The notes: generated by a model from the letters alone, not told the origin. DNA of 64,000 nucleotides from Candidatus Daviesbacteria bacterium RIFCSPLOWO2_01_FULL_39_23 (GCA_001776935.1 MFDN01000005.1:2505-66504); one strand, 5' to 3'. Shown: positions 183 through 47,738, counted from the stretch's first letter. Made by a program: numbers and translations.

Positions 183-548
183 ATGAATACTCACAAATTC
201 AGGAAACTTACAGTATGGCAAAGATCAATACAGTTTGTCTCATTAATCTATAATATAACTTCTAGATTTCCAAAAGAAGAAAAATTCGGTTTAATAGATC
301 AAATTAGACGAGCTGCAGTCAGCATCTGTTTAAATATAGCAGAAGGCACAGGAGCCGGATCAGATGCTGAATTTATTAGATTTTTAAGGATGGCTCAACG
401 TTCTGCTTATGAGGTAATCGCAGCTTTAGAAATAGCTATCAATCTAAAAATGGCAAATTATACAAGTATAAATGACGCTATCAGCGAGGCTGATCAATTG
501 AGTGCTATGCTTAGCGGTCTTATTAAAAGTCTGAAAGCTGATAGCTGA
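183..548 (+). CDS. Four-helix-bundle protein (23S rRNA intervening-sequence protein family, Avd-like)
   Basis: 121 aa. Conserved IxQIRRAAxSIxxNIAEG and RSAxEV motifs of the PF05635/TIGR02436 family. Flanked by imperfect inverted heptamer repeats (tcagtcatcagtcgtcag / ctgacgactgacgact). Confidence 0.75.
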   Translation: MNTHKFRKLTVWQRSIQFVSLIYNITSRFPKEEKFGLIDQIRRAAVSICLNIAEGTGAGSDAEFIRFLRMAQRSAYEVIAALEIAINLKMANYTSINDAISEADQLSAMLSGLIKSLKADS

Positions 549-4598: not shown

Positions 4599-4742
4599 GA
4601 AGAGTCAAGAGACTAGCAACTAGAGTCAAGGAAAATAATACTTGACCCATTCGGCTTCGCCAAATCTGACTTGGCTTCGCTCAGGGTCATCCTGAGTATA
4701 GTCGAAGGATTGACTCTAGACTCTAGCGACTAGTCACTAATT

Positions 4743-5894
4743 ATGAAGATTAAAGTTTTAGGTACCGGTTTAACAAAATTTGGAGAGCTTTGGGACAAAT
4801 CACTTTTTGATTTGGCACAGGAGGCAGCTTTGGAAGCTATTGGCGATTCGCATTTAGCTGTTAACCAAATTGAAGCTGTCTTTGTGGCTAATATGTTATC
4901 CGGGAAATTATCCGGACAAGATCACCTGGGAGCAGTCGTAGCTTCTAATTTAGGCTTATCCGGCGCCTCTTTTAGAATAGAAGCAGCCTGCGCTTCCGGG
5001 GGCCTGGCAGTACACTTGGCCATCCAATCACTTCTTTCAGGCACTTATAAAAAGGTCCTGGTTGTGGGAGTGGAAAAAATGACTGATTCCCCTGCTTCAG
5101 AGATTACTTCTGCTTTAATGGGCGCTGGCTCGCAGACAGAAAGGCTGGCCGGCTTAACTTTTCCCGGCCTGTATGCTTTGATGGCCAAAGCCCATATGCA
5201 AAAATACGGCACCACCAAAAATGAACTGGCTCAGGTGGCTGTTAAAAACCACTATCATGCTTCTTTAAACGATAAAGCCCAATTTCCCTATGAAGTTACA
5301 GAAGAAAAGGTCCTGGAAAGTTCCTGTATCTGCACCCCTTTTACCCTGTTTGATGCCTCCCCTGTTTCAGACGGCGCAGGAGCTTTGGTTTTATCAGCAG
5401 ATGATGAACCTGGGAGCCTGCCGGCCGGCAGGCAGGTTTTCATCAGCGGGTCAGCTGTTGCAACCGACACCATTGACCTTGCCAACAGAAAATCATTGAC
5501 AGAAATTACAGCAACTCAAACAGCTTCTCAGAAAGCCTTAAAACAGGCAGGAGTGGAAATAAAAGATATTAAAGTGGCAGAAGTTCACGATTGCTTTACC
5601 ATCGCGGAAATTTTGGCCATGGAAGATTTGGGTTTTTGCCAAAAAGGCGAAGGAGGCAGGTTTATTGCCAAAGGCACCACTAAACTGGGAGGGAAATTAC
5701 CCGTAAACACCTCAGGAGGCTTAAAAGCCTGCGGTCATCCGGTGGGAGCTACCGGTGTTAAACAAATTGTAGAAATAACTAATCAATTAAGGGGAAATTT
5801 GGGCAAAAGGCAGGTCAAAGGAGCCAATGTCGGCCTAACTCAAAATGTGGGCGGAACAGGCGCAACAGTAGTAGTACATGTACTACAAAATTAA
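4743..5894 (+). CDS. Acetyl-CoA C-acetyltransferase (archaeal-type thiolase)
   Basis: 383 aa. Thiolase fold with catalytic Cys in the EAACASGG region. Sits next to HMG-CoA synthase and DUF35, as in archaeal mevalonate clusters. Confidence 0.8.
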   Translation: MKIKVLGTGLTKFGELWDKSLFDLAQEAALEAIGDSHLAVNQIEAVFVANMLSGKLSGQDHLGAVVASNLGLSGASFRIEAACASGGLAVHLAIQSLLSGTYKKVLVVGVEKMTDSPASEITSALMGAGSQTERLAGLTFPGLYALMAKAHMQKYGTTKNELAQVAVKNHYHASLNDKAQFPYEVTEEKVLESSCICTPFTLFDASPVSDGAGALVLSADDEPGSLPAGRQVFISGSAVATDTIDLANRKSLTEITATQTASQKALKQAGVEIKDIKVAEVHDCFTIAEILAMEDLGFCQKGEGGRFIAKGTTKLGGKLPVNTSGGLKACGHPVGATGVKQIVEITNQLRGNLGKRQVKGANVGLTQNVGGTGATVVVHVLQN

Positions 5895-5998
5895 CAATTT
5901 ACAATGTACAATTTACAATTGAATTCACAATCTATATTTTTGTTTTCTGCTTTGTACATTCTACATTTTACATTGTACATTGAAGGCAACGCCGACCT

Positions 5999-6298
5999 AT
6001 GAACAGCCCGGTACAAATTTGGAGATCGCATAAAAACTTACATAACTACCTTGGGAAACAAGGCAGGCTTTTGGTGTGGACTAAAATATTCATTGCCCCC
6101 TCCGGTTTTGAGCATCAAACTCCCTATATTGTTGGAATTGTAGAATTTGCTGACAAAGAAAAATTGCCTTTGCAGATTGTAGATTGCGAAGAAGAATCGT
6201 TAAAACCAAATCAAAAAGTTAAAGTAGTTATTAGAAAAATAGGCAAAGTAAAATCAGAAGATGTGATTGAATACGGGCTCAAAGCAAAACCTTTATGA
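5999..6298 (+). CDS. DUF35 OB-fold scaffold protein of the thiolase/HMG-CoA synthase complex
   Basis: 99 aa, OB-fold-like. Its stop overlaps the mvk start by 4 nt. Its position matches the archaeal thiolase-HMGCS-DUF35 trio. Confidence 0.55.
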   Translation: MNSPVQIWRSHKNLHNYLGKQGRLLVWTKIFIAPSGFEHQTPYIVGIVEFADKEKLPLQIVDCEEESLKPNQKVKVVIRKIGKVKSEDVIEYGLKAKPL

Positions 6299-7308
6299 AG
6301 ACCTCCGGCAGGACAATTACAGTTTCTGCCCCGGGAAAAATACACCTGCTTGGCGAACATTCTGTAGTATATGGGAAGCCTGCTTTGCTTACGGCTATAA
6401 ATCTCAGGACCAATGTCATCCTGACGGCAAAACCCGAAGGATCTCTCGCGAATGCAAGCTCCTCAGATGAACTGAGAGATTCTTCTCCGCCCACAGCTAC
6501 GCAGTTGCTGGCGGATCAGAATGACAAAATAAAGGCAATAATTGAACCTATCGTTAAAAAATATCTGAAAATAAAACAAATCCCGCCCTATAAATTGGAA
6601 ATTTCCTCAGAATTTCCTTTAGGAGCAGGGCTTGGCTCTTCTGCTGCCATATCTTCGGCATACATCGGCGCGCTCTTAACTTTTCTTAAAATTAAATGGG
6701 ACTTACACCTTATCAATAAACTTTCCTTTGAGGCTGAAAAAGCTTTTCATGGAAATCCTTCGGGCGCAGATAATGCCGCAGTAGTGTTTGGGGGCTTAAT
6801 CTGGTTTAGAAAAGAAACTACTGATTTAAAAATAATCCAACCGATTAACTCCCCTGTCCCTGCCAATATAGCTGGAAATTTTATACTGATTAACACCGGA
6901 AAACCAAAAGAAACTACCAAAGAAATGGTGGGATTAGTAAAATTAAGAGTCAAGAGTCAAGAGTCAAGAGTCAAGAAAATATTTGATCATCAGGAACAAT
7001 TAGTTAAAGAGCTTTTACTGACCATTCAATGCGGGAATGAAAAGGAATTAATCAAAATTATCAGGGCAGGAGAGAAAAACTTGGAAAAGATGGGTGTAGT
7101 TTCTTGGTATGTTCAATCTATTATCAGAAAAATAGAAAAAGCCGGAGGTGCTGCAAAAGTGTGCGGAGGAGGAGGAAAAACCAAAGCAACAGGTGTACTT
7201 TTGGCTTATCATCCGGAAAAATCAGTACTGGAAAAAATTGCAAAATCATATGATCTACCTTATTATACGGTTGTCTTGGGAGCCGAAGGCCTGCGAAAGG
7301 AAATATAA
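6295..7308 (+). CDS. mvk: Mevalonate kinase (GHMP kinase)
   Basis: N-terminal SAPGKIHLLGEHSVVYG and PLGAGLGSSAA GHMP motifs. Carries an in-frame MITE-like insertion (6414-6526) encoding ...SSPPTATQLLADQND..., and an (agagtca)x4 repeat. Confidence 0.8.
   Translation: MKTSGRTITVSAPGKIHLLGEHSVVYGKPALLTAINLRTNVILTAKPEGSLANASSSDELRDSSPPTATQLLADQNDKIKAIIEPIVKKYLKIKQIPPYKLEISSEFPLGAGLGSSAAISSAYIGALLTFLKIKWDLHLINKLSFEAEKAFHGNPSGADNAAVVFGGLIWFRKETTDLKIIQPINSPVPANIAGNFILINTGKPKETTKEMVGLVKLRVKSQESRVKKIFDHQEQLVKELLLTIQCGNEKELIKIIRAGEKNLEKMGVVSWYVQSIIRKIEKAGGAAKVCGGGGKTKATGVLLAYHPEKSVLEKIAKSYDLPYYTVVLGAEGLRKEI
6414..6526. mobile_element. MITE-like repeat (tgtcatYctga...tcaggatgaca family) inserted in-frame in mvk
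   Basis: Terminal motifs tgtcatcctgacg ... tcagaatgaca. Internal gccagcaactgcgtagctgtgggcggagaag is shared with the copies at 17271-17370 and 17685-17812. Confidence 0.7.
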
Positions 7309-7356: not shown

Positions 7357-8358
7357 ATGAAAAGAGAAATAACAATATCAGCCCCCGGAAAATTAATGTT
7401 ACTTGGTGAACATGCTGTTGTTTATAACAGGCCCTGTATTGTTACAGCAGTCGGACAAAGAATGAGAGCTACAGTTGAGCTAACAGAGAAATCAACTTTC
7501 CAGCTTAATGCCCCGGATGTACAAATTGCAAATTATCAAAAGCCAATGGATCAATTAGGAATTGGCGATCTTCCCAAAGGAGCTAAATTTGTAGAAATTG
7601 CAGTGGTGAATTTCTTAAGGTCACTCCTTGAGTACTCAAGGAGTGACCTTGTAAAACCGGGAGTCAAGGTTTCTACGACCTCAGAATTTTCTTCCCAATT
7701 CGGTTTTGGCTCTTCCTCCGCCTCTACTGTTTGCGTAATTAAAGCCTTATCAGAAATTACAGAAGCAAATCTTAATAACAAAGAGATCTTTGATCTCGCG
7801 TACAAGACAGTGCTTGATATACAGGGCAAAGGTTCGGGATTTGATGCAGCAGCAGCCACCTTTGGAGGCACACTTTATTTTGTAACCGGAGGAAAAACAA
7901 TTGAACCTTTAAACATTGACTCCCTTCCTTTAATAGTTGGTTACAGCGGCATTAAAGCAGATACTGTCACCTTAATAAATCAGGTAAAAGAAAAAGCCGG
8001 GGGAAACCCCCAAGCTGTAGAAGATATTTATGACAATATTGGCAAGCTGGTAGAACAAGCCAAACTCGCTCTTTTGGGTAAAGATTGGCAAAGCTTAGGT
8101 GAGCTTATGAATGAAAACCAAAAACTACTAACCAAACTTGGAGTAAGCATAAACAAGCTTGATGATATGATTGCTGCCGCCCTTAAAGCAGGGGCATATG
8201 GGGCAAAGCTGTCCGGCGCCGGCGGCGGAGACTGTATGATAGCTTTAGCGCCGGAGGATAAGGTGCAAGCCGTCAAAGATGGAATAACCTCTGTCGGCGG
8301 CCAGATAATTGAGGTAGAAACGAATGCAGAAGGAGCTAGAATAGAGACGAGGGACTAG
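7357..8358 (+). CDS. GHMP kinase, probable phosphomevalonate kinase
   Basis: ISAPGKLMLLGEHAVVY and GFGSSSA motifs. Lies between mvk and mvd. Contains a perfect 34-bp palindrome in-frame (7617-7650). Confidence 0.65.
   Translation: MKREITISAPGKLMLLGEHAVVYNRPCIVTAVGQRMRATVELTEKSTFQLNAPDVQIANYQKPMDQLGIGDLPKGAKFVEIAVVNFLRSLLEYSRSDLVKPGVKVSTTSEFSSQFGFGSSSASTVCVIKALSEITEANLNNKEIFDLAYKTVLDIQGKGSGFDAAAATFGGTLYFVTGGKTIEPLNIDSLPLIVGYSGIKADTVTLINQVKEKAGGNPQAVEDIYDNIGKLVEQAKLALLGKDWQSLGELMNENQKLLTKLGVSINKLDDMIAAALKAGAYGAKLSGAGGGDCMIALAPEDKVQAVKDGITSVGGQIIEVETNAEGARIETRD
7617..7650. repeat. Perfect 34-bp palindrome within a coding region
   Basis: aaggtcactccttgagtactcaaggagtgacctt equals its own reverse complement. 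Encodes LRSLLEYSRSDLV in-frame, and the same peptide appears in the antisense ORF. Confidence 0.9.
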
Positions 8359-13610: not shown

Positions 13611-14228
13611 TCAATTTAGTAATTGTATCACTTCCTCATCTTCTACAGGCTCAAATTGATAATAAAATTGGCCGACTGATTGGAAATATTCCGGTACTTC
13701 CAACACTATACACTCGCTTGCCTCATTTTGTACCTTTTCCAAAGCCTCTGTACTGGCAACAGGCAAAGCCAAGATCACCTTTGCCTCATGTCTTTTTAGG
13801 AACTTTAAAGCAGCCAAAACTGTTGCGCCGGTAGCCATACCATCATCTACTAAGATGACTGTTTTAGTGTCTATATCAAGAAATTCTTTACCTTGACGAT
13901 AAAGCTCTTCCCGTCTTTTAATCTCCTTTATTTCGTCATCAATTTTCAATTTTAAATTTTCAATTTTCAATTTAAATTGCTTTAGCAAGTCCTGATCCCA
14001 GACTGCTTCTCCCTCAGGGTCAATTGCCCCTAAAGCCAATTCCGGCTGGTCCGGTGCGCCGATTTTTCTGGTAATTAAAACATCCAAAGGTAAATTTGAT
14101 TCTTTGGCAATTTCATAAGCCACCACCACCCCGCCTCTTGGTATTCCTAAAACCAAATCGGCTCGAAAGTCTTTCAATCTGTTAGCTAATAATTTCCCTG
14201 CAGACTGCCTATCTTTGAAAAGCTTCAT
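13611..14228 (-). CDS. Predicted phosphoribosyltransferase
   Basis: 205 aa with VILVDDGMATGAT PRTase motif (COG1926-like). In-frame (aattttc)n heptamer insertion encoding KLKIENLKLKID. Confidence 0.65.
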   Translation of the reverse strand: MKLFKDRQSAGKLLANRLKDFRADLVLGIPRGGVVVAYEIAKESNLPLDVLITRKIGAPDQPELALGAIDPEGEAVWDQDLLKQFKLKIENLKLKIDDEIKEIKRREELYRQGKEFLDIDTKTVILVDDGMATGATVLAALKFLKRHEAKVILALPVASTEALEKVQNEASECIVLEVPEYFQSVGQFYYQFEPVEDEEVIQLLN

Positions 14229-14347: not shown

Positions 14348-15661
14348 CTAATCAAACAGCCCCAACTGCGGCACTCCTTCTGCTTCTTTAACCGACCCTT
14401 CTCCGTGGTTCCAGATCTTAACTACTCCATACACCCCGTCATACCCCGGATCAATCACCACCTCCCCTTTCCTTACTTTTTCCACCCCCTCTGCCACCCT
14501 GGAATCCGATACTTTTACAATTTCTGCTGTATCAACTTTGGTTAAAATCTTTATTTCCGATCCTAAAACACCAGTTAACTTTTTATATTCATTTAAGACT
14601 TTTTGGGTTGTTGGAGCAGTCCCAAAAGCTTCTGCAATCACTTGCAAAAGCGGCACTAACATTCTATATCCAGCTCTATTTGGAAAAGCTTGAGTTTTAA
14701 TTAACCCTTTGTCATTTGAAATTTGTAATTTGTCATTTCCTCGCGAAGCGAGACTTTCCACCCTTTCCATCACCCCAACAGTTAATCCCCTGCCGCAAAC
14801 AGGGCACTTGGTACCTTTTGCTTTAGTATCTTTTGGTGAGTATTTTACATTGCAATTTCTGTGCCCTGTATAATGGTATTTGCCTTCCTCAGGATGAAAT
14901 TCTATAGTACCGGCAATCTTTTGCTCTTTAATGGCTTCAAATAACCCCAAATACCCTGTTTGCACTTCTCCTCCAATTACTGTTGCTTCTCTGCCTAAAT
15001 TCGGCAAAGAATGTGCATCAGAACAGGATATTATTGACCTTTGATCCAACTCAGAAATTCTCCAGTTCATGGCCGGATCAGAAGAAAGCCCGGTTTCTAC
15101 GCCGTATATATATTCTGTTAAATCCTCAAAGCAGTCCTCCAGGCTGTCATATCCTGACTGGGAACCAAACACCCCAAACCAGGGAGTCCAAATGTGAGCC
15201 GGAATAAAAATAGCTTTTTGGTCTGTCTCAAGACACATCCTTAAAAGCTCTTTGGAAGGGATACCTACAATCGGACGTCCGTCAGAGGATAAATTGGCGT
15301 GTTTAGCAAGCAAAGCTTTTTGCAATTTTTCTGCTGACTCAAATGAGGGCAAAATTATGACATTATGAATCCGGCACCCTGCGCCTTTATGGGAATAAAT
15401 AGAAGCCACTTCCACTGTTAGGACAAACCTGACTTCATTTCCAGCCAGAGGCTGGTCGTCCTTTGGACGAAAGAATCCTGAGCCGTCTTCTTTTAACTGG
15501 CTTTTTAATTCTGCAAGCCAAAGAGGATGCAGAAAATCTCCTGTCCCCAAAACATCAATCCCCTTAAGTTTTGCCCACATGGCTAAATTAGGAACATTTA
15601 ATTGGGGTGAGCAAGCCCGGGAGAATCTGGAGTGAATATGCAAATCTGCAATATACGCCAT
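14348..15661 (-). CDS. PHP-domain nuclease, endonuclease Q-like (TIGR00375 family)
   Basis: N-terminal IADLHIHSRFSRA PHP motif. CPVCGR zinc-finger-like motif. The 437 aa length matches EndoQ. Small in-frame heptamer insertion (NDKLQISNDKG). Confidence 0.55.
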   Translation of the reverse strand: MAYIADLHIHSRFSRACSPQLNVPNLAMWAKLKGIDVLGTGDFLHPLWLAELKSQLKEDGSGFFRPKDDQPLAGNEVRFVLTVEVASIYSHKGAGCRIHNVIILPSFESAEKLQKALLAKHANLSSDGRPIVGIPSKELLRMCLETDQKAIFIPAHIWTPWFGVFGSQSGYDSLEDCFEDLTEYIYGVETGLSSDPAMNWRISELDQRSIISCSDAHSLPNLGREATVIGGEVQTGYLGLFEAIKEQKIAGTIEFHPEEGKYHYTGHRNCNVKYSPKDTKAKGTKCPVCGRGLTVGVMERVESLASRGNDKLQISNDKGLIKTQAFPNRAGYRMLVPLLQVIAEAFGTAPTTQKVLNEYKKLTGVLGSEIKILTKVDTAEIVKVSDSRVAEGVEKVRKGEVVIDPGYDGVYGVVKIWNHGEGSVKEAEGVPQLGLFD

Positions 15662-15834: not shown

Positions 15835-17673
15835 CTACTTCTTGTATTGCTGCTTATACATCTCTATTAACTCTTTCACAGTTGTTGCATCCTCAGCTTT
15901 TTTGTCCGCTTCCCTAAATTGAACAAGTCTTGGAAATCTCAAAGCATAGCCGGGTTCTGTCTCTGTTTTTCCTGCAGTATGCACCGGCGAACGGGTTATT
16001 TCATCAGCCAATACCTCTATAACAAGTCTTGGCTCCACCCAAACACTGGGAATGATTAAAGAATTCACCCTGGCCGGCTTACTTTTTACTTTTAACTTTT
16101 GACTTTTTACTTCAATACCCCTCCACTCCTCATCAGAGAGTCCTGTGCCGATTTTAGAAACTGTCACAAATTCGTCTTTTTTATCATCATAAACTCCCAC
16201 CAAAAGCGACCCTGCCCCAAATCCCGATCTTTTGCCTTTACCAAAAATATATCCCAAAATTACACAATCTATAGTATCTTTTAATTCCCCTGAAGAATGC
16301 CTTTTTAGTTTAACCCAGTTAAAATTCCTGGCTCCTGCTTCATATTTTGAGTCAGGTCTTTTAACCACCAATCCCTCAAGCCCCAAAGATATTGCCTCAT
16401 CCAAAAGATCCTGCAATCTTTGCGCTTCACTCACCATCTCCCCTTCTTCCACTACTAAAGTGTCTCCATCTGCCACTACAGCTTTTAGCTCTTTTAATCT
16501 TTCAGTAAGCGGTAAATCAATTAAAGATATCCCATCTTTATATAAGATATCAAAACAAAAAGCCCTCAGAGGAATCTTTTTTGTCATTTCTGCGATTCCA
16601 TACTTTCTGCGTCTTTGTGTAGTCTCCTGAAAAGGCAAAAACTCATCCGAAGCAGGGTTATAGCCTATGGCTTCACAATCCAAGATGGCTGATTTTGCTT
16701 TAATTTGTTTTATTGCCCCTTCGGCAATTTCCGGAAACATCGGGGTAGTTTCTTCCAGGTTTCTCGAAAACAATCTTACTGTCTGATGACTGACAGCTGA
16801 CGACTGACGTCTATCTATGTGTATTTGTACCCTAAAACCATCCAATTTTCTTTGGGCATTTACTTCTCCCAGCTTTTCAATTACTGTCTTGCCGGAAGGT
16901 AATCTTTCAGCAAGCTGCGACCGAATCGGCCTGCCTACTTGTATTTCCAGCTTTTCTACAGCTTCCAATCCGCCCTGCCATAAAGTTTCTCCAATTAAGC
17001 CTAAATCAGATACCCTGTTATAGCCTCCCTCTAAAAGTTTACGCTTTGACCTGTCCCCCAGCTTTAATTTGGCAAAAGCATCCAAAATAGTCGGGTCTCC
17101 GATCCCTAAACGGGAAACTCCCAAAGGAATCCTGACTAAATGCTTTGCAGACACCGCATCCATTTGTTTTAATAGTCCTACCAAAAGTTGTTGTTTTTTC
17201 TCTACAGTTCCCTCCCCTGTTGTTTTGGCAATCTGAGTTAGAATATGAAACACCTGACTTACGTTTAATTTGTCATTCCGATCCGCCAGCAACTGCGTAG
17301 CTGTGGGCGGAGAAGAATCTCTAGATTTACTTTTTGAATCTTGAGATCCTTCGCTACGCTCAGGATGACACTTTATATCACTAAGTTGCTGGACTACTAA
17401 TCCCAAATCCCCTACTTTTCCATATTCTTTTAAAACTTCTTCCCTCCCGATGCCGTAGGCTTTGGCAATACTTGCAGCCACTGTTTTTTCTGCCATCCCC
17501 ATTTCCAAAGGTTCATAAAACGGAGCAACTCTGCCTTGAATTAAATAGGAAACTTTGCCAATTTCTTCTGTTTTAATTTCTCTAAACAACTCGGTTAAAA
17601 TATCAATCAATAAAAGCCTTGAGGAAGTTGCTTCTAGTTTTTCAAAATATTCTGCTAGTTTAGAAAATAACAT
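15835..17673 (-). CDS. ATP-dependent DNA ligase (archaeal/eukaryotic type)
   Basis: MLFSKLAEYFEKLEATSSR N-terminus, KLDGFR adenylation motif, and EGLVVK and OB-domain motifs. The track start at 17739 is a GTG inside a MITE, so the ATG at 17673 is preferred. Two in-frame repeat insertions. Confidence 0.85.
   Translation of the reverse strand: MLFSKLAEYFEKLEATSSRLLLIDILTELFREIKTEEIGKVSYLIQGRVAPFYEPLEMGMAEKTVAASIAKAYGIGREEVLKEYGKVGDLGLVVQQLSDIKCHPERSEGSQDSKSKSRDSSPPTATQLLADRNDKLNVSQVFHILTQIAKTTGEGTVEKKQQLLVGLLKQMDAVSAKHLVRIPLGVSRLGIGDPTILDAFAKLKLGDRSKRKLLEGGYNRVSDLGLIGETLWQGGLEAVEKLEIQVGRPIRSQLAERLPSGKTVIEKLGEVNAQRKLDGFRVQIHIDRRQSSAVSHQTVRLFSRNLEETTPMFPEIAEGAIKQIKAKSAILDCEAIGYNPASDEFLPFQETTQRRRKYGIAEMTKKIPLRAFCFDILYKDGISLIDLPLTERLKELKAVVADGDTLVVEEGEMVSEAQRLQDLLDEAISLGLEGLVVKRPDSKYEAGARNFNWVKLKRHSSGELKDTIDCVILGYIFGKGKRSGFGAGSLLVGVYDDKKDEFVTVSKIGTGLSDEEWRGIEVKSQKLKVKSKPARVNSLIIPSVWVEPRLVIEVLADEITRSPVHTAGKTETEPGYALRFPRLVQFREADKKAEDATTVKELIEMYKQQYKK
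17271..17370. mobile_element. MITE-like repeat inserted in-frame in the DNA ligase gene
   Basis: tgtcattccgatccgccagcaactgcgtagctgtgggcggagaagaatctctagat...gagatccttcgctacgctcaggatgaca. Encodes ...SRDSSPPTATQLLADRNDK... Confidence 0.75.
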
Positions 17674-17684
17674 AAAAACCTCTC

Positions 17685-17812
17685 TGTCATTCTGATCCGC
17701 CAGCAACTGCGTAGCTGTGGGCGGAGAAGAACCTCCCACGAATGTGGGTATTAGGTATCCAGAATAAATCTGGAGATCCTTCGTCCCGATTAAATCAGGA
17801 CTCAGGATGACA
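17685..17812. mobile_element. MITE-like repeat immediately upstream of the ligase start codon
   Basis: Same family (tgtcattctgatccgccagcaactgcgtagctgtgggcggagaaga ... ctcaggatgaca). Its end lies 11 nt from the ATG, next to a GAGAGG Shine-Dalgarno-like sequence. Confidence 0.7.
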
Positions 17813-20077: not shown

Positions 20078-20581
20078 TCATGTTGTAATGTCGCAGGTCA
20101 AGCGATTAATTTCCATCACGATCACCCACTTCTCTATTCCCAAATCTTTGATGTAGCTTTCTAATTTATCAAAGACACTTCTTTTACTAATCCAGACACT
20201 CTTTTGTAAATGTTTAAAACCCCATTTCTTAAGATTCCTTCTAAAAAGATTTCTTATTATTCTTTTTTCTTCCGGAATATCAAATATCACTACTCTCCAC
20301 TTCCCGTCCCATTTCTTTTCTTCAGATTGATTATCAACAAGGTCTTTTCCTGCTTCTGTTAACTTAATTAAAACATCATTTTTAAGCTTAATTTGTTCAA
20401 TTAACCCGCCTTCTCTTAATCTTTTTAATGCTTGAGACAGAGAAGATTTTTTTAAATCCGGAATACCGTGGTGATAGCGGTAATGGTGATAGGCAAAATC
20501 TTCCAAGCGGATATAACCATCTATTGTTTTTTCTAGAGCAAACAAAATTGCATTTGTTAAACTCTTTTTATAAACCCTCAT
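20078..20581 (-). CDS. PaaX-like transcriptional regulator (small, wHTH + WDGKW domain), paralog 1
   Basis: WDGKWRVVIFDIPEEKRIIRNLFRRNLKKWGFKHLQKSVWISK resembles the WDGKW region of E. coli PaaX. The N-terminus is wHTH-like. Highly similar to 34375..34893. Confidence 0.55.
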   Translation of the reverse strand: MRVYKKSLTNAILFALEKTIDGYIRLEDFAYHHYRYHHGIPDLKKSSLSQALKRLREGGLIEQIKLKNDVLIKLTEAGKDLVDNQSEEKKWDGKWRVVIFDIPEEKRIIRNLFRRNLKKWGFKHLQKSVWISKRSVFDKLESYIKDLGIEKWVIVMEINRLTCDITT

Positions 20582-21152: not shown

Positions 21153-24100
21153 CTAGTTTCCGACATACTCATCCCAACTTTTAATTTGTAGATCTTCTAC
21201 TTTTTTGCTAGCCAGGCTGGTTATTAAAAGCTCTGCTGCCTGCAGGTTAGTTATCAAAGGAATACCCAAATCCACACAATTCCTTCTTAAAATAAATCCG
21301 TCAGTTTCGCCTTTTTCCACCCCTCCCTCAGATATATTTATCACAAGATCAATCCCCTCGTTTAGAAGACTTAGCACAGAAGGTTCTCTTTTTTCTGCAA
21401 TTTTATAGATTCTGGTATTTTCAATGCCATGACTTTTTAGAAACTCTGAAGTATGGTGGGTGGCATATATTTTTAAACCTAAATTAATAAGCTGTTTTGC
21501 AGAAAGCAGCAAATCAAGTTTATTTTTATCCCCTCCCAAAGACAGCAATACTCCTTTTTTGGGTATTTTAAACCCAACAGCCAAAATGGCTTTAAGATAA
21601 GCCTCCTGCAGGTCATCCCCAAAACAAGCCACCTCCCCTGTTGAGGACATTTCCACCCGGAGTCTCGGATCCGCTCCTTTAATCCGGGAAAAAGAAAACT
21701 GCGGAGCTTTAACTCCCACATAATCTAAATCTATGGTCTTAAATCCATTGGTAAGTTTTTCTCCCATCATAACTTTTGTGGCCAATTCCACAAAGTTATA
21801 TCCTGTTACTTTGGAGACAAAAGGGAAAGACCTGGAAGCCCGGAGGTTTAATTCAATCACCTGTATTTTATTGTCTTTTGCCAAAAATTGAATATTGAAA
21901 GGGCCATTGATATTTAAAGCCTGAATAATCTTTTTGGTGGCCTCTTTTACCTTCCTGACAGTCTCAAGATAAAGCCTTTGAGGCGGCAAAACAATGGTGG
22001 CATCACCTGAGTGTACGCCGGCATTTTCCACATGTTCTGAGATGGCATAAATCAAAAGTTCCCCGCTTTGCCCTACTCCGTCAACTTCAATTTCTTTCGC
22101 CCCTTCTACAAACTTGGAAATTACCACCGGATGTTCGGGAGAAATATCCGAGGCGCTTTTTAAGTGCTTGGTTAGCTCAATAGAAGAATATGCCACATTC
22201 ATGGCAGAACCGGATAACACATAAGACGGCCTGACTAAAACCGGGTAACCGATTTTCTTGGCAAATGTTAAAGCCTCATCTACTCCTTTTAAGCTCTGCC
22301 ATCCCGGCTGTTCTATTCCTAGTGTGTCTAAAAGCTTAGAAAACTTATTACGGTCTTCTGCCCGGTCAATATTTTCAGGGGAAGTTCCCAGTATTTTATA
22401 ACCGGCCTTAAAACAAGCGATTGCCAAATTGTTGGGTACCTGTCCCCCAAAACTTAAAACAAGGTTGGCATTTTCTTCAATATCATAAATGTCACTAACT
22501 CGCTCAAAGGTCAGCTGTTCAAAATACAATTTATCCGCGCTGTCAAAATCTGTAGAAACTGTTTCCGGATTACAATTTATAATAATTGTTTCTAACCCTT
22601 TTTCCCTTAATGTTTTGGCTGCTGTTACACAGCACCAATCAAATTCCACAGAAGAACCAATCCTGTAAGGGCCGGAGCCAAGGACAATTGCTTTTTCGCT
22701 TTTCGCTATTAGCTTTTCGCTGTTAGCTTCTGATTCTTCTCCATGATATGTCAGATATAAATAATTTGTTTTAGCCGGGAATTCTCCTGCTAAAGTATCA
22801 ATATGTTTTACAACCGGTACTATGCCATGTTTCTTTCTGAATTCTCTAACTTTTTCTTGGGTGGTTTTAAATGCTTTAGCCAGTACTTTATCTGAAAAAC
22901 CTAATCTTTTTGCATCAAGAACGCTTTTCGCTGTTAACCCGCCTGCGACGCTATGCGTAGCATTGCGGGCAGGCTGTTGGCTTTTAGCTGCTAATGGCGA
23001 ATGGCCAATAGCTAATAGCTTTTTCTCAAACTCCACCATCTCTTTTATCTGATACAAAAACCATGGATCAATCCCTGTGGCCTGATAAATATCTTCTACT
23101 GATTCACCTTTACTAAGCCTTTTGGCAATGGCAAAAAGCCGCTCTGTGGTGGGCAAAAGCTGTGTATCATCTGTACCGTTTTCTAAAAGCCCATCCTGCC
23201 CTGTTTCAAGCATCCTGATGGCTTTTTGCAACACTTCCGGAAAAGATCTGCCTATTGCCATCACCTCTCCCACGCTTTTCATCTCCGAACCGATCGCTTC
23301 TTTTGCTCCCGCAAACTTTTGCAAATCCCACCTTGGAAGCTTAATCACAATATAATCCAAAGCCGGCTCAAAAAAGGCTGAAGTCGATAAAGTAACTCTA
23401 TTTTTAAGCTGCGGCAGATTGTAACCCAAGGCAATTTTGGCAGCAATATAAGCCAAAGGATAACCTGTGGCTTTAGAGGCTAAAGCTGAAGAACGCGACA
23501 ACCTGGCATTAACCTCTATCACCCGGTAATCATTATTCTCCGGATTTAGGGCAAATTGGATATTGCACTCCCCTACAATCCCCAAATACTCAATCACTTG
23601 TAGAGATAACTTGCGTAAAAAATGATACTGGTAATTATTTAAAGTTTGCGAAGGAGCTACCACAATACTCTCACCGGTATGAATCCCCAAAGGATCCATA
23701 TTTTCCATATTACAAACAGTGATTTTATTACCCTTATTATCCCGGACCACTTCATACTCCACCTCTTTCCAATGTTTTAAATATTCTTCAATAGCAATCT
23801 GCGGAGCCTGACTCAAAGCACTGGTGACCATTTTAATAAATTCCTCCTTACTTTCAACTACTCCTGAACCTAAACCTCCTAAAGAAAAACCGGATCGTAT
23901 AAGAAGCGGATACTCTAACTTCTCAGCAATTTCCAGAGCCTGATTCAAACTTTTGGCAAAACCGCCGACGGGAACTTTGACGCCAATTTTTGCAAGTTCC
24001 CCGGCAAAAAGCTCCCGGTCTTCCGTAATTTCTATACTTTTTACAGGAGTACCTAAAACCTTAACGCCATACTTTTTAAAAATCCCGTTCTTTTCCAAAG

Positions 24101-24383: not shown

Positions 24384-24394
24384 AATGTCCCTTC

Positions 24395-24477
24395 TGTCAT
24401 TCTGAGCGTAGCGAAGAATCTCTTGACTTGTTCAAGGTTCCAAACTAGATCCTTCGGCTAATCGCCTCAGGATGACA
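24395..24477. mobile_element. MITE-like repeat filling the carA-carB intergenic region
   Basis: tgtcattctgagcgtagcgaagaatctc...gatccttcggctaatcgcctcaggatgaca. Abuts the carA stop codon and ends 11 nt from the carB start. Confidence 0.75.
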
Positions 24478-25572
24478 CTAAAGAAAGCTAATAAATTCAT
24501 CAAACAAGTATCCACCATCAACCGGCCCCGGATTTGCTTCCGGATGAAACTGCACAGCCATAAATGGTTTTTTCTTATGCCTGATCCCCTCATTCGTGCC
24601 GTCATTTAAATTCACAAACCATTCCTGCCAACCTGAACCCATAGACTTGATATCTACTGCAAAACCATGATTTTGAGAAGTAATAATAGCCTTCTTTGTA
24701 ATTTGATCTTGTATGGGTTGATTTTGGCCCCGATGGCCAAATTTCAGTTTGTATGTATTTCCACCTGCTGCTAAAGATAAAATCTGACTGCCTAAACAGA
24801 TTCCAAAAGTAGGGATATTTTTGTTTAGAATCTGCTCTACATTTTCTATGGTTTGTTTTGCCTGTTTTGGGTCTCCGGGACCATTGGAAATAAGCACCCC
24901 GTCAAAATCAATTTTTGCATCCAGTGGATTAAAATCCCAAGGCACCCGGGTAACTTTCACCCCTCTTTTCACCAAACTCCTGATGATATTTTCCTTCGCC
25001 CCGCAATCTATTAAAACAATGTTTTTCTTCCCTGATCCATAAACTTCTACCTCTTTACAGCTTACATAAGGCAGGATATTTTCTTTGTTGGGATCATAAG
25101 TAAAGTCGCCAGTCGCTAGAGTCGAGAGTCTAGACTTTGTGTTACTTGACTCTTGACTCTTGACTCTTGACTCTACCTCTATCCGGCCCAGCATCACTCC
25201 ATGTTCCCGGAGCTTTATAGTCAAAGCCCGGGTGTCAATGCCTTGCAAAGCCGGGATTTTTTCCTCTCTTAACCATTCTCCTAATGTTTTTTCACTTTCA
25301 AAATGCGACGGATGATCAATATAATTTTGCACAATCAATCCTTTTACCTGTATCTTTTTCGATTCCCAAAAATCCTTTTTTGGAACCCCGTAATTGCCTT
25401 GCAAAGGATAGGTTAAAACCAAAATCTGACCAAAATAAGAAGGATCTGTTAAAGCTTCAGGATAACCCACCATACTGGTATTAAATACCACTTCACCAGA
25501 CGTGCTGCCTTCAAATCCAAAACTTTTTCCTAAAAAAACTGTCCCATCGGACAGTGTCAGTTTACCATCCAT
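24478..25572 (-). CDS. carA: Carbamoyl-phosphate synthase small subunit (glutamine amidotransferase)
   Basis: 364 aa. GICLGSQ amidotransferase Cys motif. In-frame (gagtcaa)n insertion encoding VESRVKSQESSNTKSRLSTLA. Confidence 0.9.
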   Translation of the reverse strand: MDGKLTLSDGTVFLGKSFGFEGSTSGEVVFNTSMVGYPEALTDPSYFGQILVLTYPLQGNYGVPKKDFWESKKIQVKGLIVQNYIDHPSHFESEKTLGEWLREEKIPALQGIDTRALTIKLREHGVMLGRIEVESRVKSQESSNTKSRLSTLATGDFTYDPNKENILPYVSCKEVEVYGSGKKNIVLIDCGAKENIIRSLVKRGVKVTRVPWDFNPLDAKIDFDGVLISNGPGDPKQAKQTIENVEQILNKNIPTFGICLGSQILSLAAGGNTYKLKFGHRGQNQPIQDQITKKAIITSQNHGFAVDIKSMGSGWQEWFVNLNDGTNEGIRHKKKPFMAVQFHPEANPGPVDGGYLFDEFISFL

Positions 25573-26520: not shown

Positions 26521-26669
26521 TGTCATTCTGGCCTGTCCAGAATCCTTTCTGTCATTTTGTTGTCATTCTGATCCCGATGTATATCGGGAGAAGAATCTCT
26601 AGATTAATTCTAGATACATCTTAAACAAGTTAAGAGATCCTTCTGGTCCAATGGACCATCAGGATGACA
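26521..26669. mobile_element. Composite or nested MITE-like repeats directly upstream of the pyrB start codon
   Basis: tgtcattctggcc..., ctgtcattttg..., tgtcattctgatcccgatgt...agaagaatctctagat...gagatccttctggtccaatggaccatcaggatgaca. Begins 1 nt from the pyrB ATG. Confidence 0.7.
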
Positions 26670-32376: not shown

Positions 32377-33321
32377 TCACTTTTGACAATGGAGACAAAA
32401 GTATGTGCCGCGGCCTGCTAAGGCAATTTTTTTAATTTCTGTTTTGCACATTTTGCAAGGATGTTTGTCCCGCCAATACACATAGGCGTAATCTAAAAAA
32501 TAGCCTTTGTGGCCTTCCGGATCTACAAAATGCGCCCGGGTGGACCCGCCGCGTTTTATCCCCTCTTTTAAAGCTTTAATAATGCCCTCAAAAAGTGATT
32601 TAAACTGTTTATCAGTTAAATCCCCGACTTTTGTTCGCGGATCAATTTTAGCATTAAAACAAGCTTCATTTGAATAAATATTCCCTATTCCGGAAACAGC
32701 ACTTTGATCCATAATCGCCACCTTAACCGGCATAGATTTATGCCTTAATAAATTCTGTTTCAAAACCTCCCAGGTAAATCCTTTTTCCAACGGCTCAGGT
32801 CCTAAATTTTTCAGAGAATTGTCAATTGCCAATTGTCCATTGTCAATTACCTTCACCCATCCAAAACGACGCTGGTCATTAAAATAAAGATGGGAGTTAT
32901 TCGAAAACGTAAATATAACTCTAGTGTGAGGATTCGGCATAGTTCCCAGCATATCTTCTGTGGGGTGCCCACCTATAAAACGCTTTTCGCTACTGGCTAT
33001 TCGCTTTTCGCTTGGAATATAAATAAGTTGGCCGGACATTTTTAGATGGAATAGAAGAGTTATTTGCTGTTCGCTATTGGCTGTTAGCTTTTTGCTTTTG
33101 GCTATTAGCGAACGGCGAATAGCTAATAGCTTTTCCCCTACGAGGTCTATACCGAGCAGTTTAGCTCTTCTCCATATTTTGAGTACATTTTTACCCTGGG
33201 CTAAATTAGGGTTCCCGATAAAGGATTTAGGAGAAAGAATTTGGATTTTTTGGATTTTCAACCCGATGATTTTTTTGGTCAACCCCAAACGGATAACTTC
33301 CACTTCCGGTAATTCAGGCAT
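32377..33321 (-). CDS. mutM: Formamidopyrimidine-DNA glycosylase (Fpg/Nei family)
   Basis: MPELPEVE N-terminus, H2TH region, and C-terminal C4 zinc finger (CKMCKTEIKK...CLHCQK). Several in-frame heptamer-repeat insertions (PSEKRIASSEKRF etc.) lengthen it to 314 aa. Confidence 0.8.
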   Translation of the reverse strand: MPELPEVEVIRLGLTKKIIGLKIQKIQILSPKSFIGNPNLAQGKNVLKIWRRAKLLGIDLVGEKLLAIRRSLIAKSKKLTANSEQQITLLFHLKMSGQLIYIPSEKRIASSEKRFIGGHPTEDMLGTMPNPHTRVIFTFSNNSHLYFNDQRRFGWVKVIDNGQLAIDNSLKNLGPEPLEKGFTWEVLKQNLLRHKSMPVKVAIMDQSAVSGIGNIYSNEACFNAKIDPRTKVGDLTDKQFKSLFEGIIKALKEGIKRGGSTRAHFVDPEGHKGYFLDYAYVYWRDKHPCKMCKTEIKKIALAGRGTYFCLHCQK

Positions 33322-34374: not shown

Positions 34375-34893
34375 TCATATTTTGTCGCTGGGGCCATACT
34401 TATCTGATTCAAAAACCCAAACCCACTTCTCTACCCCCAAATCTTTAATGTAAGCAAATAATTTATCCGTAATATTTTTTTTAGAAATCCAGACACTTTT
34501 TTGGAAGTGCTTAAAACCCCACTTTTTGAGATTCCTTCTAAACAAATCCCTTATTAATCTTTTTTGTTCCGGAATATCAAAAATAACTACCCGCCACTTG
34601 CCATCCCACTGATCAGTCTCAACGTCAGAAAAAAGTATTTGAGTTCTACCTTCATCTGTTAATTTTAAAATAATCTCTCCGGAATTAATTTTCTCTTCCT
34701 TAATATAACCCTTTTCTCTTAATCTTTTGATTGCTATTGATAATGATGATTTGTTTAAAGGATATTCCCAGCCGCTGCCATCGTAGTAGTAATGAGTATT
34801 AAACATAACATCCTCAAACCTGATATAACCATCCGCCGCTTTTTCTAAAGCCAACAGCACCCACCAACCGGCACTCTTCTTTTGCAATCCCAT
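34375..34893 (-). CDS. PaaX-like transcriptional regulator, paralog 2
   Basis: WDGKWRVVIFDIPEQKRLIRDLFRRNLKKWGFKHFQKSVWISK, near-identical core to 20078..20581. The track start at 34899 is a TTG, so the ATG at 34893 is preferred. Flanked on both sides by CACGATCG-core palindromes. Confidence 0.55.
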   Translation of the reverse strand: MGLQKKSAGWWVLLALEKAADGYIRFEDVMFNTHYYYDGSGWEYPLNKSSLSIAIKRLREKGYIKEEKINSGEIILKLTDEGRTQILFSDVETDQWDGKWRVVIFDIPEQKRLIRDLFRRNLKKWGFKHFQKSVWISKKNITDKLFAYIKDLGVEKWVWVFESDKYGPSDKI

Positions 34894-34895
34894 GC

Positions 34896-34927
34896 ACAAA
34901 ACATTACACGATCGTTGAATGTTTTGT
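34896..34927. promoter_or_regulatory. Inverted repeat acaaaacatt-acacgatcgttg-aatgttttgt (candidate operator)
   Basis: 10-bp perfect arms around a CACGATCG core. Overlaps the start region of PaaX-like paralog 2. A related IR gacaaaatatg-tcacgatcgtatc-catattttgtc lies at 34349-34383. Confidence 0.4.
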
Positions 34928-37105: not shown

Positions 37106-37126
37106 ACTTCTCTAATATCATCCTGA

Positions 37127-37242
37127 TAGTCCATTGGACCAGAAGGATCTCTCAACCCGCCGAAGGCGAGGCTCGCCTCTGGCGGCTTATTTGAGATACT
37201 ACTGACATTCGTCAGAGATTCTTCGCTACGCTCAGAATGACA
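37127..37242. mobile_element. MITE-like repeat (intergenic, between ABC ATPase and aldolase)
   Basis: tcatcctgatag...ggaccagaaggatctctc...ccgccgaaggcgaggctcgcctctggcgg...cttcgctacgctcagaatgaca. Internal GC-rich hairpin. Confidence 0.7.
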
Positions 37243-39293: not shown

Positions 39294-40437
39294 AATGATT
39301 TTTTACCAATTCTAAAATCTCTTTTTTGAATCTTTCTTTGGAAAACTTTTCAGCATTTTTTATACAGTCTTCCGGATCCCATCCAGAGGATGGTCCGCCT
39401 TGGGCGGAAAATTTTTGTAAAGCTTCCATTAAATCATCTGCTGTTGCTACACCAGGACCTCCATATAAAACGCCTGTTTTACCATCAATAACAGTTTCCA
39501 AAAAACCCCCTGAGGCAGGCGCTATTACCGGCGTACCAACAGCTTGTGCCTCAATTGAGGTAATCCCAAAATCCTCATCTTCTGCCGCGACTATCAGGGC
39601 TTTGGCATTTTGCAAAAGTTGAATTCTTTCTTCATCGCTCACCCATCCCAGAAATTCAGTGCTTTTAGCTTTTAGCTTTTCACTATTAGCTTTTAGCTCA
39701 TCTAATTGCGGACCTGTGCCAGCCACCTTAAGCGGCAAGCCCAACTTTCCGCAAGCCTCCACTACCACCTCCACTCCTTTCCCTCTTACCAGTCTACTCA
39801 ATACCAAAAAATAGCTTTTCGCTGCTAATGGCGAATGGCCAACAGCGAATAGCTCTAAATCCACTGGCGGGTAAATCACCACACTATCTCTTCTGTAGAA
39901 CTTTTTAATCCTTGCGGCGATATTTTTGGAATTGGCTATTAAAATATCCGGCCGCTGGGAAACTTCAAAATCATAAATCCGCATAAAATGATTAATAATC
40001 TCCCCACTTATTCTGGTCCACCAGTGTTTTTTGTAATTAAAGCTTGTGACGTAACCATACAAAAATCTGGGAGGGGTATGAATGTAACTTAAATGCAGAG
40101 TTTCGGGCTTGGTGATAACAGCTTTAGCTAAGTGAGTAGCAGATGAAGATGAAATCACCAAGTCGTATTCTGACAAATCAAAGCTTTCAAACATCATCGG
40201 TCCAAAAATCCGGAAAGGAGAAAGTAACCGGTTGGCAAAAGGAAATTTCTGAAACCAGGAAGTTCTAATGTCCCAACCTGCAAATCTTTTTCCATTTTCT
40301 CCCAGTTTCTCAGGATTATAATAAGCAGTAAAAAGGGGTGCCTGGGGAAAAATTTCATGCAAAACCTCCAAGACTCTTTCTGCTCCGCCGTACTCCCTTA
40401 AATAATCATGCACTAAAGCAACTTTTAAATTTTTCAT
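39280..40437 (-). CDS. Glycosyltransferase family 4
   Basis: GT-B fold with C-terminal E-x7-E region (EDFGITSIEAQAVGTPVIA). In-frame heptamer insertions encoding GHSPLAAKS and ELKANSEKLKAKS. Confidence 0.75.
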   Translation of the reverse strand: MKNLKVALVHDYLREYGGAERVLEVLHEIFPQAPLFTAYYNPEKLGENGKRFAGWDIRTSWFQKFPFANRLLSPFRIFGPMMFESFDLSEYDLVISSSSATHLAKAVITKPETLHLSYIHTPPRFLYGYVTSFNYKKHWWTRISGEIINHFMRIYDFEVSQRPDILIANSKNIAARIKKFYRRDSVVIYPPVDLELFAVGHSPLAAKSYFLVLSRLVRGKGVEVVVEACGKLGLPLKVAGTGPQLDELKANSEKLKAKSTEFLGWVSDEERIQLLQNAKALIVAAEDEDFGITSIEAQAVGTPVIAPASGGFLETVIDGKTGVLYGGPGVATADDLMEALQKFSAQGGPSSGWDPEDCIKNAEKFSKERFKKEILELVKNHYGKS

Positions 40438-47097: not shown

Positions 47098-47738
47098 TTT
47101 TGAGCCCTTTCCGAATAAACCATTCTTTCAACTTCATTCAAAGCCGAAGAGCTGGCTTCTTTTGATAAAAATGTACATGCAGAAAGCTTTGATATATTAA
47201 GCTCATTAGCAACAAGAGGATGCATCTGGCTAATTTTATCAATAAATTTACCTTCCCACTCTGACAATCTGCTTATCGCAAGCCTGATAGACATACGCGC
47301 ATTTGGATTTGAAATTTGATCATAAACTGTTTGCAAAGTGCTCATCTGCAAGACAATTTCACCAGCGGCCTTCCCTGCAAAACCGCTATCTAAGGGACTC
47401 AGTAAATTGGCAATTTCCTGTAAATGCCAACTGTATCTTTCCAAGGTGGGCAGAATTAAATCCGCGCGGGATACAGAAACTAAGCTCTTCACTTCTCTTA
47501 TCCTTCGGGTTGAAAACTCTATCTGTCTTAGAGCCTTTATGTTTGTGGTACCGGCAAACTTAAGTTCCAAATTTTCCCGGATTGATTTCAAAAAGTACAA
47601 AGGCGAAGCCGGATGAATCCTAGCCTGCCCAATGGCATCAGCTTGGGCATAGGCAGGAAAAATGTAAAATGTAAAATGTAAAATGTAAAATGTAAAAAGC
47701 AGAAGAATCAATCTAATTGTAAATTGTACATTGTACAT
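47076..47738 (-). CDS. Hypothetical secreted protein
   Basis: Predicted signal peptide (MYNVQFTIRLILLLFTFYILHFTFYIFPAYAQA) partly encoded by the aatgtaa heptamer repeat. The track ORF extends further from a GTG. Confidence 0.3.
   Translation of the reverse strand: MYNVQFTIRLILLLFTFYILHFTFYIFPAYAQADAIGQARIHPASPLYFLKSIRENLELKFAGTTNIKALRQIEFSTRRIREVKSLVSVSRADLILPTLERYSWHLQEIANLLSPLDSGFAGKAAGEIVLQMSTLQTVYDQISNPNARMSIRLAISRLSEWEGKFIDKISQMHPLVANELNISKLSACTFLSKEASSSALNEVERMVYSERAQKCQTVKQ

Follow-up and report, generated by a model that had tools for sequence, protein, structure and literature searches.

An element of 113 bp, E1, is found within the mevalonate kinase gene (mvk) of Candidatus Daviesbacteria bacterium RIFCSPLOWO2_01_FULL_39_23, a groundwater bacterium of ultra-small size that belongs to the candidate phyla radiation (CPR). 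The stretch analysed, 64,000 nucleotides (nt) long (GCA_001776935.1, MFDN01000005.1:2505-66504), is referred to here as the window. E1 is most probably a non-autonomous repeat of the repetitive extragenic palindromic (REP) type, an old resident dimer that is translated, has been re-copied, and has later gained a nested 30-nt hairpin termed X. It is organized on three levels: two REP hairpin units with CGTC/TGTC tags, the joining of these units head to head as a heterodimer through a spacer with two small conserved hairpins, and X within one unit's apical loop. The original prediction had placed a 113-bp element at 6414-6526 within mvk and had named its termini, and both are confirmed far beyond chance. 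The termini, TGTCATCCTGA and TCAGAATGACA, are complementary at 10 of 11 positions, and the terminal 11-mer is present 19 times in the window versus 1.8 expected. The 46-nt right half of E1 has three occurrences with no more than one mismatch (the other two at 17271-17316 and 17685-17730) versus none in shuffled sequences. The host gene, E1 and its parts are as follows.

6295..7308, plus strand: mvk, host gene, mevalonate kinase of 337 aa (337-codon ORF), with all invariant GHMP-kinase positions present
6414..6526, no strand: E1, composite head-to-head REP heterodimer of 113 bp within mvk, encoding V41-D77 and two split codons
6414..6445, plus strand: B unit of E1, with tag TGTC, basal stem ATCCT/AGGAT, tandem GA/GA, inner hairpin CGGCAAAACCCG and tail CTC
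6445..6458, plus strand: spacer hairpin H2 of E1, CTCGC-GAAT-GCAAG, with one mismatch in the E1 copy
6462..6476, plus strand: spacer hairpin H3 of E1, CTCAG-ATGAA-CTGAG, as read from the listed sequences
6476..6526, minus strand: A unit of E1, with a TGTC tag, stem ATTCT/AGAAT, GA/GA, X within the apical loop and tail CTC
6486..6515, plus strand: X, 30-nt hairpin TCCGCCCACAGCTACGCAGTTGCTGGCGGA that is nested within the A unit's apical loop, encoding (S)PPTATQLLAD

The identity of the host open reading frame (ORF) is well defined. The closest homologs are annotated as mevalonate kinase of Candidatus Daviesbacteria, the AlphaFold model of the product gives mevalonate kinases as best matches in the PDB (Foldseek), and the gene is located in a complete mevalonate operon. 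The identical 337-aa protein is found on 28 contigs and is deposited for the ACD_38 and GW2011_GWC2_40_12 assemblies.

Six composite elements of 83-128 bp are present in the window and share one plan, two inverted units with the TGTC ends outward. The bounds common to all six are TGTCATYCTGA...TCAGRATGACA, and the unit follows the formula TGTC-AT(Y)CT-GA-[apical hairpin]-GA-AG(R)AT-CTC. The other five elements and the second host gene are listed here.

15835..17670, minus strand: ATP-dependent DNA ligase, second host gene, with the start codon as in orthologs
17271..17370, no strand: E2, 100-bp head-to-head dimer in frame in the ATP-dependent DNA ligase, encoding CHPERSEGSQDSKSKSRDSSPPTATQLLADRND, with X at 17282-17311
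17685..17812, no strand: E3, 128-bp head-to-head dimer in the stretch that separates the start codon of the ligase from a divergent GGDEF gene, with X at 17696-17725
24395..24477, no strand: E4, 83-bp head-to-head dimer in the carA-carB intergenic space
26561..26669, no strand: E5, 109-bp intergenic head-to-head dimer upstream of pyrB
37116..37242, no strand: E6, 127-bp intergenic head-to-head dimer between an aldolase and an ABC-ATPase gene

CGTC-tagged REPs have an unpaired CGTC tag (often TGTC, with a CCTC variant allowed), a stem of 8-9 bp starting with A-T and T-A, loops of 4-5 nt and a 3-nt tail with the consensus CCA. They form mostly head-to-head dimers with the tags outside, often heterodimers, with structured spacers of 20-100 bp; they have no associated transposase, and in-frame intragenic copies are known, including replication/repair genes and a DNA ligase (PMC3733652). 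In the window, 11 of the 12 units of the six dimers carry TGTC, the twelfth (in E6) being TATC; the stem starts AT...AT in all units, and all six dimers have their tags outward. The units also end in a conserved 3-nt tail, which is CTC versus the published CCA. The basal stem is 5 bp long and is followed by tandem GA/GA and an inner stem of 2-7 bp, and the loops range from 3 nt to a 30-nt hairpin. Because these stem and loop lengths depart from the published CGTC families, the window units are classed as a variant of the CGTC/TGTC-tagged REP super-family. In E2 the basal stem is mismatched, ATTCC with AGAAT, which could be the boundary of a gene-conversion tract or a single point mutation.

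The Y/R position of the basal stem forms standard pairs in 47 of 47 cases in the local set (24 T-A, 23 C-G, none discordant) and in 171 of 172 in an independent set from viral contigs. Since Y and R covary within units, the conserved pairing is that of the local hairpin of each unit. Heterodimers of one ATCCT and one ATTCT unit make up 20 of 21 dimers from CPR loci, metagenome loci and the window, and because the paired units differ in type the long palindrome is broken by a mismatch on either strand. The spacers of the longer dimers contain two small hairpins, of the H2 and H3 types. Nine other copies of H2 have perfect 5-bp stems around GAAT, in seven stem sequences, and thus show compensatory changes. 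The H3 counterpart in other copies is CTCAA-ATAAA-TTGAG, and the general form is CTCAR-N5-YTGAG. Single-strand folds of the elements are better than those of shuffled sequences as DNA (z = −2.5 to −5.3) and as RNA (z = −3.9 to −6.7); for E1, which folds much better than its shuffles, the values are −3.9 for RNA and −2.5 and −2.8 for DNA. Of a unit's six reading frames, four lack stop codons, as read from the sequence.

A generic single-unit finder (tag plus any 5-bp stem) was too noisy, with 479 matches versus 423 in the reversed control, and was replaced. The head-to-head dimer finder gave 77 dimers versus 13 in the reversed-sequence control over 80 Microgenomates loci (1.3 Mb). Inside long ORFs are 28 of 58 filtered dimers, and by our count about 18 of 47 are intragenic once the mvk site is omitted, in a sample that was chosen around mvk and is thus biased for the intragenic share. 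The TGTC-type basic unit is common in IMG/VR viral contigs as well. The commonest apical loops of units in the viral-contig set are GCGNAGC, which we take to be the classic ultra-stable DNA mini-hairpins.

The dimers are mosaics. E1, E2, and E3 share just the ATTCT-type unit with the 30-nt apical hairpin, while the other unit and the spacer differ. The right-hand unit of E1 (6473-6526, about 51-54 nt) matches 17271-17321 and 17685-17735 at 94-96% identity, and the comparison of the unrelated genes and an intergenic copy likewise gives 94-96% nucleotide identity, over 54-64 nt. The statement that the same element recurs in the DNA ligase therefore holds for the right unit with X, but not for the left unit and spacer. 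Beyond the element, 9 of 12 flanking nt match between mvk and ligase, which was judged not significant.

E1 begins with base 3 of codon 40 and ends with base 1 of codon 78, and thus spans 37 whole codons and two split ones. Its 113 bp are not a multiple of 3, and exact excision leads to a stop after 6 codons; exact excision of the 100 bp of E2 also shifts the ligase frame. MVK keeps every position that is invariant in 120 orthologs. As exact excision breaks the frame and the invariant positions are retained, a functional enzyme would require translation of E1, and the element is predicted to be transcribed and translated as MVK residues 41-77. The junction peptides expected from a translated E1 include TNVILTAKPEGSLANASSSDELR and DSSPPTATQLLADQNDK.

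In the AlphaFold2 (AF2) model of MVK (mean predicted local distance difference test, pLDDT, 92), a strand is formed by residues 29-45, coil by 46-67 (pLDDT 54-70) and a helix by 68-91. The first residues encoded by E1 (VILTA) continue the beta-strand and the last (ATQLLADQND) begin the helix. According to the model, the middle of E1 appears as a floppy loop and part of E1 appears to stand in now for native secondary structure. The spacing from LR to IIEPI is about 15 residues in insert-free orthologs versus 43 in the window MVK. Because the ends of E1 now encode the end of the strand and the start of the helix, the net gain is about 25-27 residues. The insertion had been predicted to be in frame and to add about 38 aa; it is in frame, but the addition is the smaller one given here.

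Of importance, the same loop is occupied in relatives. The shortest of the 120 MVK orthologs are without an insert, and many carry repeat-derived peptides at exactly the loop of E1. Alignment with repeat-free orthologs agrees with the predicted insertion status, in that these have a short loop and not the same segment. At the DNA level the occupants of the loop are TGTCAT...ATGACA elements of the stem families ATYCTGA, ACCCTGA, ATTGCGAG, ATTCTGG, and ATTCCCGC, and an unrelated palindrome, CACCTCCGAGGTG, is also found there. In two Gottesmanbacteria loci (L047 and L048) the units are textbook ones, TGTC-ATTCCCGC-GAAA-GCGGGAAT-CCA with an 8-bp stem, and in a minority of relatives (L002, L067) the stem starts AC...GT. 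Relatives at this loop encode SFPRKRES or VIPAKAGI, the same peptides as in published R. conorii CGTC-1 copies.

The closest relatives (loci L145, L144, L007, L067, and L002) carry an E1-like dimer whose orientation, and whose position with respect to the IIEPI codons downstream, are those of E1. The distance from the right end to the EP codons is 17 nt in the window and in every close relative measured. The apical hairpin of the right unit, however, differs in each of the five. The mvk scaffold has an identity between species of up to 90-91%, versus 64-75% for the flanking coding DNA. From these alignments the dimer appears to be an old resident of the mvk and ligase loops, common to other Daviesbacteria species. 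The species gave no empty E1 site, since every full-length protein in the 90% cluster has 337 aa. In a second assembly of the same species, mvk is frameshifted into ORFs of 233 aa and 72 aa exactly at an (AAGAGTC)n array, which could be phase-variation-like slippage or an assembly error.

The ORF directly downstream of mvk in other genomes, by synteny with the window probably a second GHMP kinase, has its own recurrent head-to-head dimer site, e.g. CHPERSEGSLANASQNKSGDSSAMPQNDK. The terminal 11-mer and the dimer finder show no dimer in the window copy of this ORF (7357-8358). Dimers in the ORF of other genomes are found at the following positions.

L005: 11638-11722
L010: 11767-11827
L011: 11238-11301
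L025: 11189-11281
L041: 11676-11763

The DNA ligase is another example of a repeatedly occupied loop. Most orthologs have a 9-residue linker and a subset has a dimer; those of loci L146 and L147, from two other species, are collinear with E2 and have the tag CGTC. The ligase scaffold is 94-95% identical between species versus 68-75% for the flanks. The sole large difference between E2 and the orthologs is the apical loop, which is GCAAGC or GCAGGC there and the 30-nt X in the window; X in place of a 6-nt loop adds 24 nt, i.e. eight codons. The insertion into mvk inferred in the original prediction is accordingly upheld as far as a repeat in mvk is concerned, but not as a single recent event of 113 bp, since an old resident dimer has later exchanged its apical hairpin.

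E3 is not present in the 50-nt intergenic region of the relative L146. Some database entries give a 634-aa ligase that starts from a GTG at 17739 (15835-17739, minus strand), with E3 read as an N-terminal extension, MGGSSPPTATQLLADQND. The ligase orthologs and the annotated 612-aa entry start at MLFSKL, downstream of E3. Because it lies upstream of the start codon used by the orthologs and the 612-aa protein, the peptide of E3 is probably not translated. The peptide SSPPTATQLLAD[QR]ND, shared by mvk and ligase, derives from X; its predicted presence inside the ligase is correct for the E2 copy, but the "Q" version belongs to E3 (17685-17812). The protein P0245 (87 aa, on a 2-kb contig) has RVFTRAGLIL directly after ...LLADQND, and this junction either marks one more genomic copy of the unit with X or is a chimera that arose at the repeat during assembly.

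X is not confined to these dimers. An exact search of metagenome contigs with its 28-nt core gave 64 matches in 63 stretches; there are 48 distinct flanks, the three window copies included, and the contigs range from 32 to 66% GC. TGTC units account for just three of these metagenome matches, and the remainder cap unrelated hairpins. By alignment, X is P3 of the RNase P RNA in loci L127 (992-1506) and L143, and a context ending in GAGGAAAGTCC in L088 and L105 resembles that of RNase P P3. X is found in peripheral hairpins of a group I intron (L119, 1917-2134) and is contained in a glmS ribozyme match (L098, 1238-1448). In three rRNA-gene loci (L096, L125, L084) it adjoins the same intron-like motif, GTCTCTACGGGGTC, and in L096 (990-4521) it lies in an intron-like insertion in the 16S rRNA gene. 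RecJ and arginyl-tRNA synthetase genes (L093, 866-3043, minus strand; L111, 1266-3440, minus strand) contain in-frame palindromic inserts of the types CCCGCCTGC... and CACCTGGAAGG..., with X at the tip. Forms other than the exact one are limited to two near-identical variants in the sequences examined. A shorter relative, TCCGCC-AGCT-GGCGGA, and other GC-rich mini-hairpins, e.g. CCCGATTAAATCGGG, recur in several loci. X has no match in IMG/VR viral contigs and thus gives no sign of phage carriage.

These contexts suggest that X is an independent module copied into hairpin tips. A stronger proposal, considered possible but somewhat doubtful, is that X is a self-propagating 30-nt cassette that is written into the apical loops of any existing hairpins, in CPR-like genomes of 32-66% GC, and remains identical at all 28 core positions. 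If so, it would possibly be the smallest copy-and-paste DNA module described, which would imply either some mechanism directed at the loops of hairpins or a conserved binding partner of X.

For E1 itself, the lineage-specific change would be that the mvk copy and both ligase-locus copies acquired X in their apical loops, and this would account for the peptide common to the two genes. Hairpin tips may be preferred entry points; there is precedent in IS1397 and ISKpn1, which insert specifically into REP units. The dimer sequence would be kept near the family consensus most likely by gene conversion or by re-copying through single-strand hairpin intermediates. Persistence and homogenisation may proceed by transposition through some enzyme or by gene conversion between copies, and coding copies would survive where the encoded peptide is tolerated. 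Since the scaffold exceeds the flanks of essential genes in conservation, passive inheritance does not explain it, and conversion/re-copying or selection at the sequence level is likely.

Several points weigh against an old, re-copied and translated REP dimer as the explanation. A mobilising enzyme would have to be postulated, and translation of E1 is deduced from sequence. The conservation of the scaffold could reflect a sequence-level function and not conversion. The units are not textbook CGTC members, having a 5-bp stem, two G.A pairs, and variable nested loops. Across mvk occupants the spacing between the right end and the EP codons takes one of three values (9, 14, or 17 nt), and the element types are scattered on the neighbour-joining tree of MVK, which is poorly resolved, too poorly for counting insertion events. 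The scattered types and three distance classes indicate that some occupants of the mvk loop arose by independent insertion.

It is also conceivable, though rather unlikely, that E1, or X if not the whole of it, acts chiefly as a structured RNA, e.g. a hairpin bound by a protein or processed by an RNase, which selection on the RNA would maintain and whose presence in coding sequence is secondary; this is compatible with a resident REP dimer. The strong predicted RNA folds cited above would fit such a function, as would a scaffold far better conserved than the flanking codons and the presence of X in RNase P P3, group I introns, and the glmS ribozyme. There is also a mild strand preference, five of six distinct structured-RNA contexts transcribing the strand of X that has G.U rather than A.C. 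However, the sole Rfam match in the window above the gathering score is tRNA-Met, and thus no described RNA family explains the elements. Copies are found in both orientations to genes (examples are E6 and the antisense X of RecJ and L131), the GCGNAGC loops correspond to the classic ultra-stable mini-hairpins of DNA, and in the long-range fold each strand contains a single wobble and a single mismatch, so that neither strand is clearly favoured.

A classical MITE (miniature inverted-repeat transposable element), a deletion derivative of a DDE-type insertion sequence (IS) moved in trans via terminal inverted repeats, would likewise show 11-nt terminal inverted repeats, a size of 83-128 bp and several copies, but it is a very improbable source of E1. 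None of the six dimers has flanking direct repeats indicative of a target-site duplication, the copies are mosaics that share half-units only, and the apparent terminal repeats are the tag and basal stem of two hairpins that covary locally and not with each other. The roughly 50 ORFs of the window (64 kb of genome) contain no transposase domain, and no parent IS with the same termini is present in the window. The term MITE-like used in the original prediction can be kept in a loose sense only, given the missing target-site duplication and the mosaic structure. That E1 is an ordinary variable loop of MVK or an assembly artefact, with the ligase likeness due to chance or convergent selection on the peptide, is given practically no credence. 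The loop does vary in length among MVK orthologs, but chance, a native loop, and an artefact are excluded by the 94-96% repeat identity over 54-64 nt in unrelated genes and an intergenic copy, by the identical protein on 28 independent contigs, and by orthologous elements in other species. Three further intergenic copies also argue against these.

Other copies in the window are intergenic or solitary. E4 occupies the whole carA-carB gap (24384-24477); with one end directly at the stop codon of carA and the other 11 nt short of the start of carB, it makes up part of the ribosome-binding region of carB. Two single units are as follows.

4685..4712, plus strand: solitary degenerate unit with the tag GGTC, upstream of a thiolase gene
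26521-26546: single unit of the ATTCTGG family, adjoining E5

The window also contains period-7 tandem repeats, at 6945-6976 in mvk and at 16 or more other sites. These arrays are nearly equal in total length (about 30-38 nt, with 4.3-5.6 copies), their units differ, and they are found both between genes and inside ORFs. Examples are listed here.

2453-2483, period-7 array
5889-5920, period-7 array
5952-5982, period-7 array
13939-13973, period-7 array
14708-14738, period-7 array
16079-16112, period-7 array
22693-22729, period-7 array
25145-25174, period-7 array
32817-32848, period-7 array
33061-33109, period-7 array
39661-39698, period-7 array
47659-47697, period-7 array

The arrays at 32817-32848 and 33061-33109 are inside the ORF of an Fpg/Nei glycosylase (32377-33321, minus strand), whose N-terminal domain has 155 residues versus a 117-position profile. 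This extension looks like a second kind of repeat-derived in-frame insert. An FtsH gene (50800-53928, minus strand) has an intein, with LAGLIDADG and intein-splicing domains between FtsH_ext and AAA. The ORF at 183-548 (plus strand) is a member of family PF05635, "23S rRNA intervening sequence protein". Two paralogous small ORFs (20078-20581 and 34375-34899, both minus strand) each have a PaaX central/Cas2-like domain, and a repeat of 188 nt, 80% identical, is common to both.

Coding palindromes have so far been seen as an oddity found in Rickettsia and few lineages besides. Here the CGTC/RPE super-family (RPE, Rickettsia palindromic element) inhabits essential genes in CPR bacteria, whose tiny genomes leave little DNA to spare. 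In mevalonate kinase and in DNA ligase, one and the same surface loop is repeatedly occupied across species by a repeat scaffold that is better conserved than its essential host genes, and parts of it are predicted to encode regular secondary structure. Thus these loops may serve to test how selfish or semi-domesticated DNA adds protein sequence. The identity of X in dozens of unrelated contexts points to some copying of very short hairpins into hairpin tips. On the practical side, such repeats cause false "domain" similarities, over-extended ORFs such as the 634-aa ligase, and breaks in CPR assemblies.

In-frame REPs and RPEs are already known, and the literature searches made gave nothing relevant for the unit sequences, for X, or for CPR/Patescibacteria with palindromic coding repeats. 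The present findings add a variant architecture of the unit, loops of essential enzymes that are occupied repeatedly at the same site across species, a scaffold conserved above its host gene, and an ultra-conserved nested X common to catalytic RNAs. RPEs were reportedly treated by Ogata et al. in 2000 (Science 290:347) and 2002 (Genome Res 12:808). The likeness of E1 to these elements, noted in the original prediction, is borne out, since defining features of CGTC REPs are present and R. conorii CGTC-1 and CGTC-4 are RPE-6 and RPE-4, respectively (Di Nocera, De Gregorio & Rocco 2013, BMC Genomics 14:522; PMC3733652). RPEs, RPE-1 included, are palindromic repeats of 100-150 bp found in frame in unrelated housekeeping genes, translated, and located at fold-compatible sites (PMC10969869). 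The window repeats are likewise in frame in unrelated genes (mvk and ligase), with the fold kept in the AF2 model. The peptide of RPE-1 is conserved, however, whereas the frames used in the window differ, VILTAKPEGS in mvk versus CHPERSEGS in ligase. The link to RPEs is closer than analogy, and rests on the published equivalence of RPE-4 and RPE-6 with CGTC-4 and CGTC-1 and on the peptides shared by the relatives.

With CGTC REPs the window elements share the tag, the AT-start stem, head-to-head heterodimers, structured spacers and in-frame copies, and they may also share the 3-nt tail (CTC here) and, as far as the 64 kb of the window shows, the lack of a linked transposase; relatives at the mvk and ligase loops encode SFPRKRES, VIPAKAGI, and HPELVSGS (compare the published RHSELVSGS). 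They differ in that the host belongs to the CPR, as judged from the part of the published phylum list that was compared, and in that intragenic dimers make up about half of those in the loci sampled. REP doublets forming hairpins (REPINs) and bacterial interspersed mosaic elements (BIMEs) of E. coli and Pseudomonas are also inverted doublets of REP hairpins with a spacer, have two unit types per dimer, are mosaic, and are long-lived in lineages. BIMEs have Y and Z units as two distinguishable unit types. The window elements are unlike the system of REPINs and REP-associated tyrosine transposases (RAYTs) in having the tag CGTC/TGTC versus GTAG, and no Y1 transposase (RAYT) domain is present in the window. 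To our knowledge, REPINs are almost entirely extragenic. The mobile G+C-rich clusters of yeast mitochondria and the double-hairpin elements of chytrid mitochondria are tiny cassettes in coding, intron, and RNA genes of AT-rich compact genomes. The mitochondrial clusters resemble X only, as tiny GC-rich palindromic cassettes in coding regions, introns, and RNA genes, but they are unrelated in sequence and found in other hosts, whereas X is specifically at the tips of existing hairpins.

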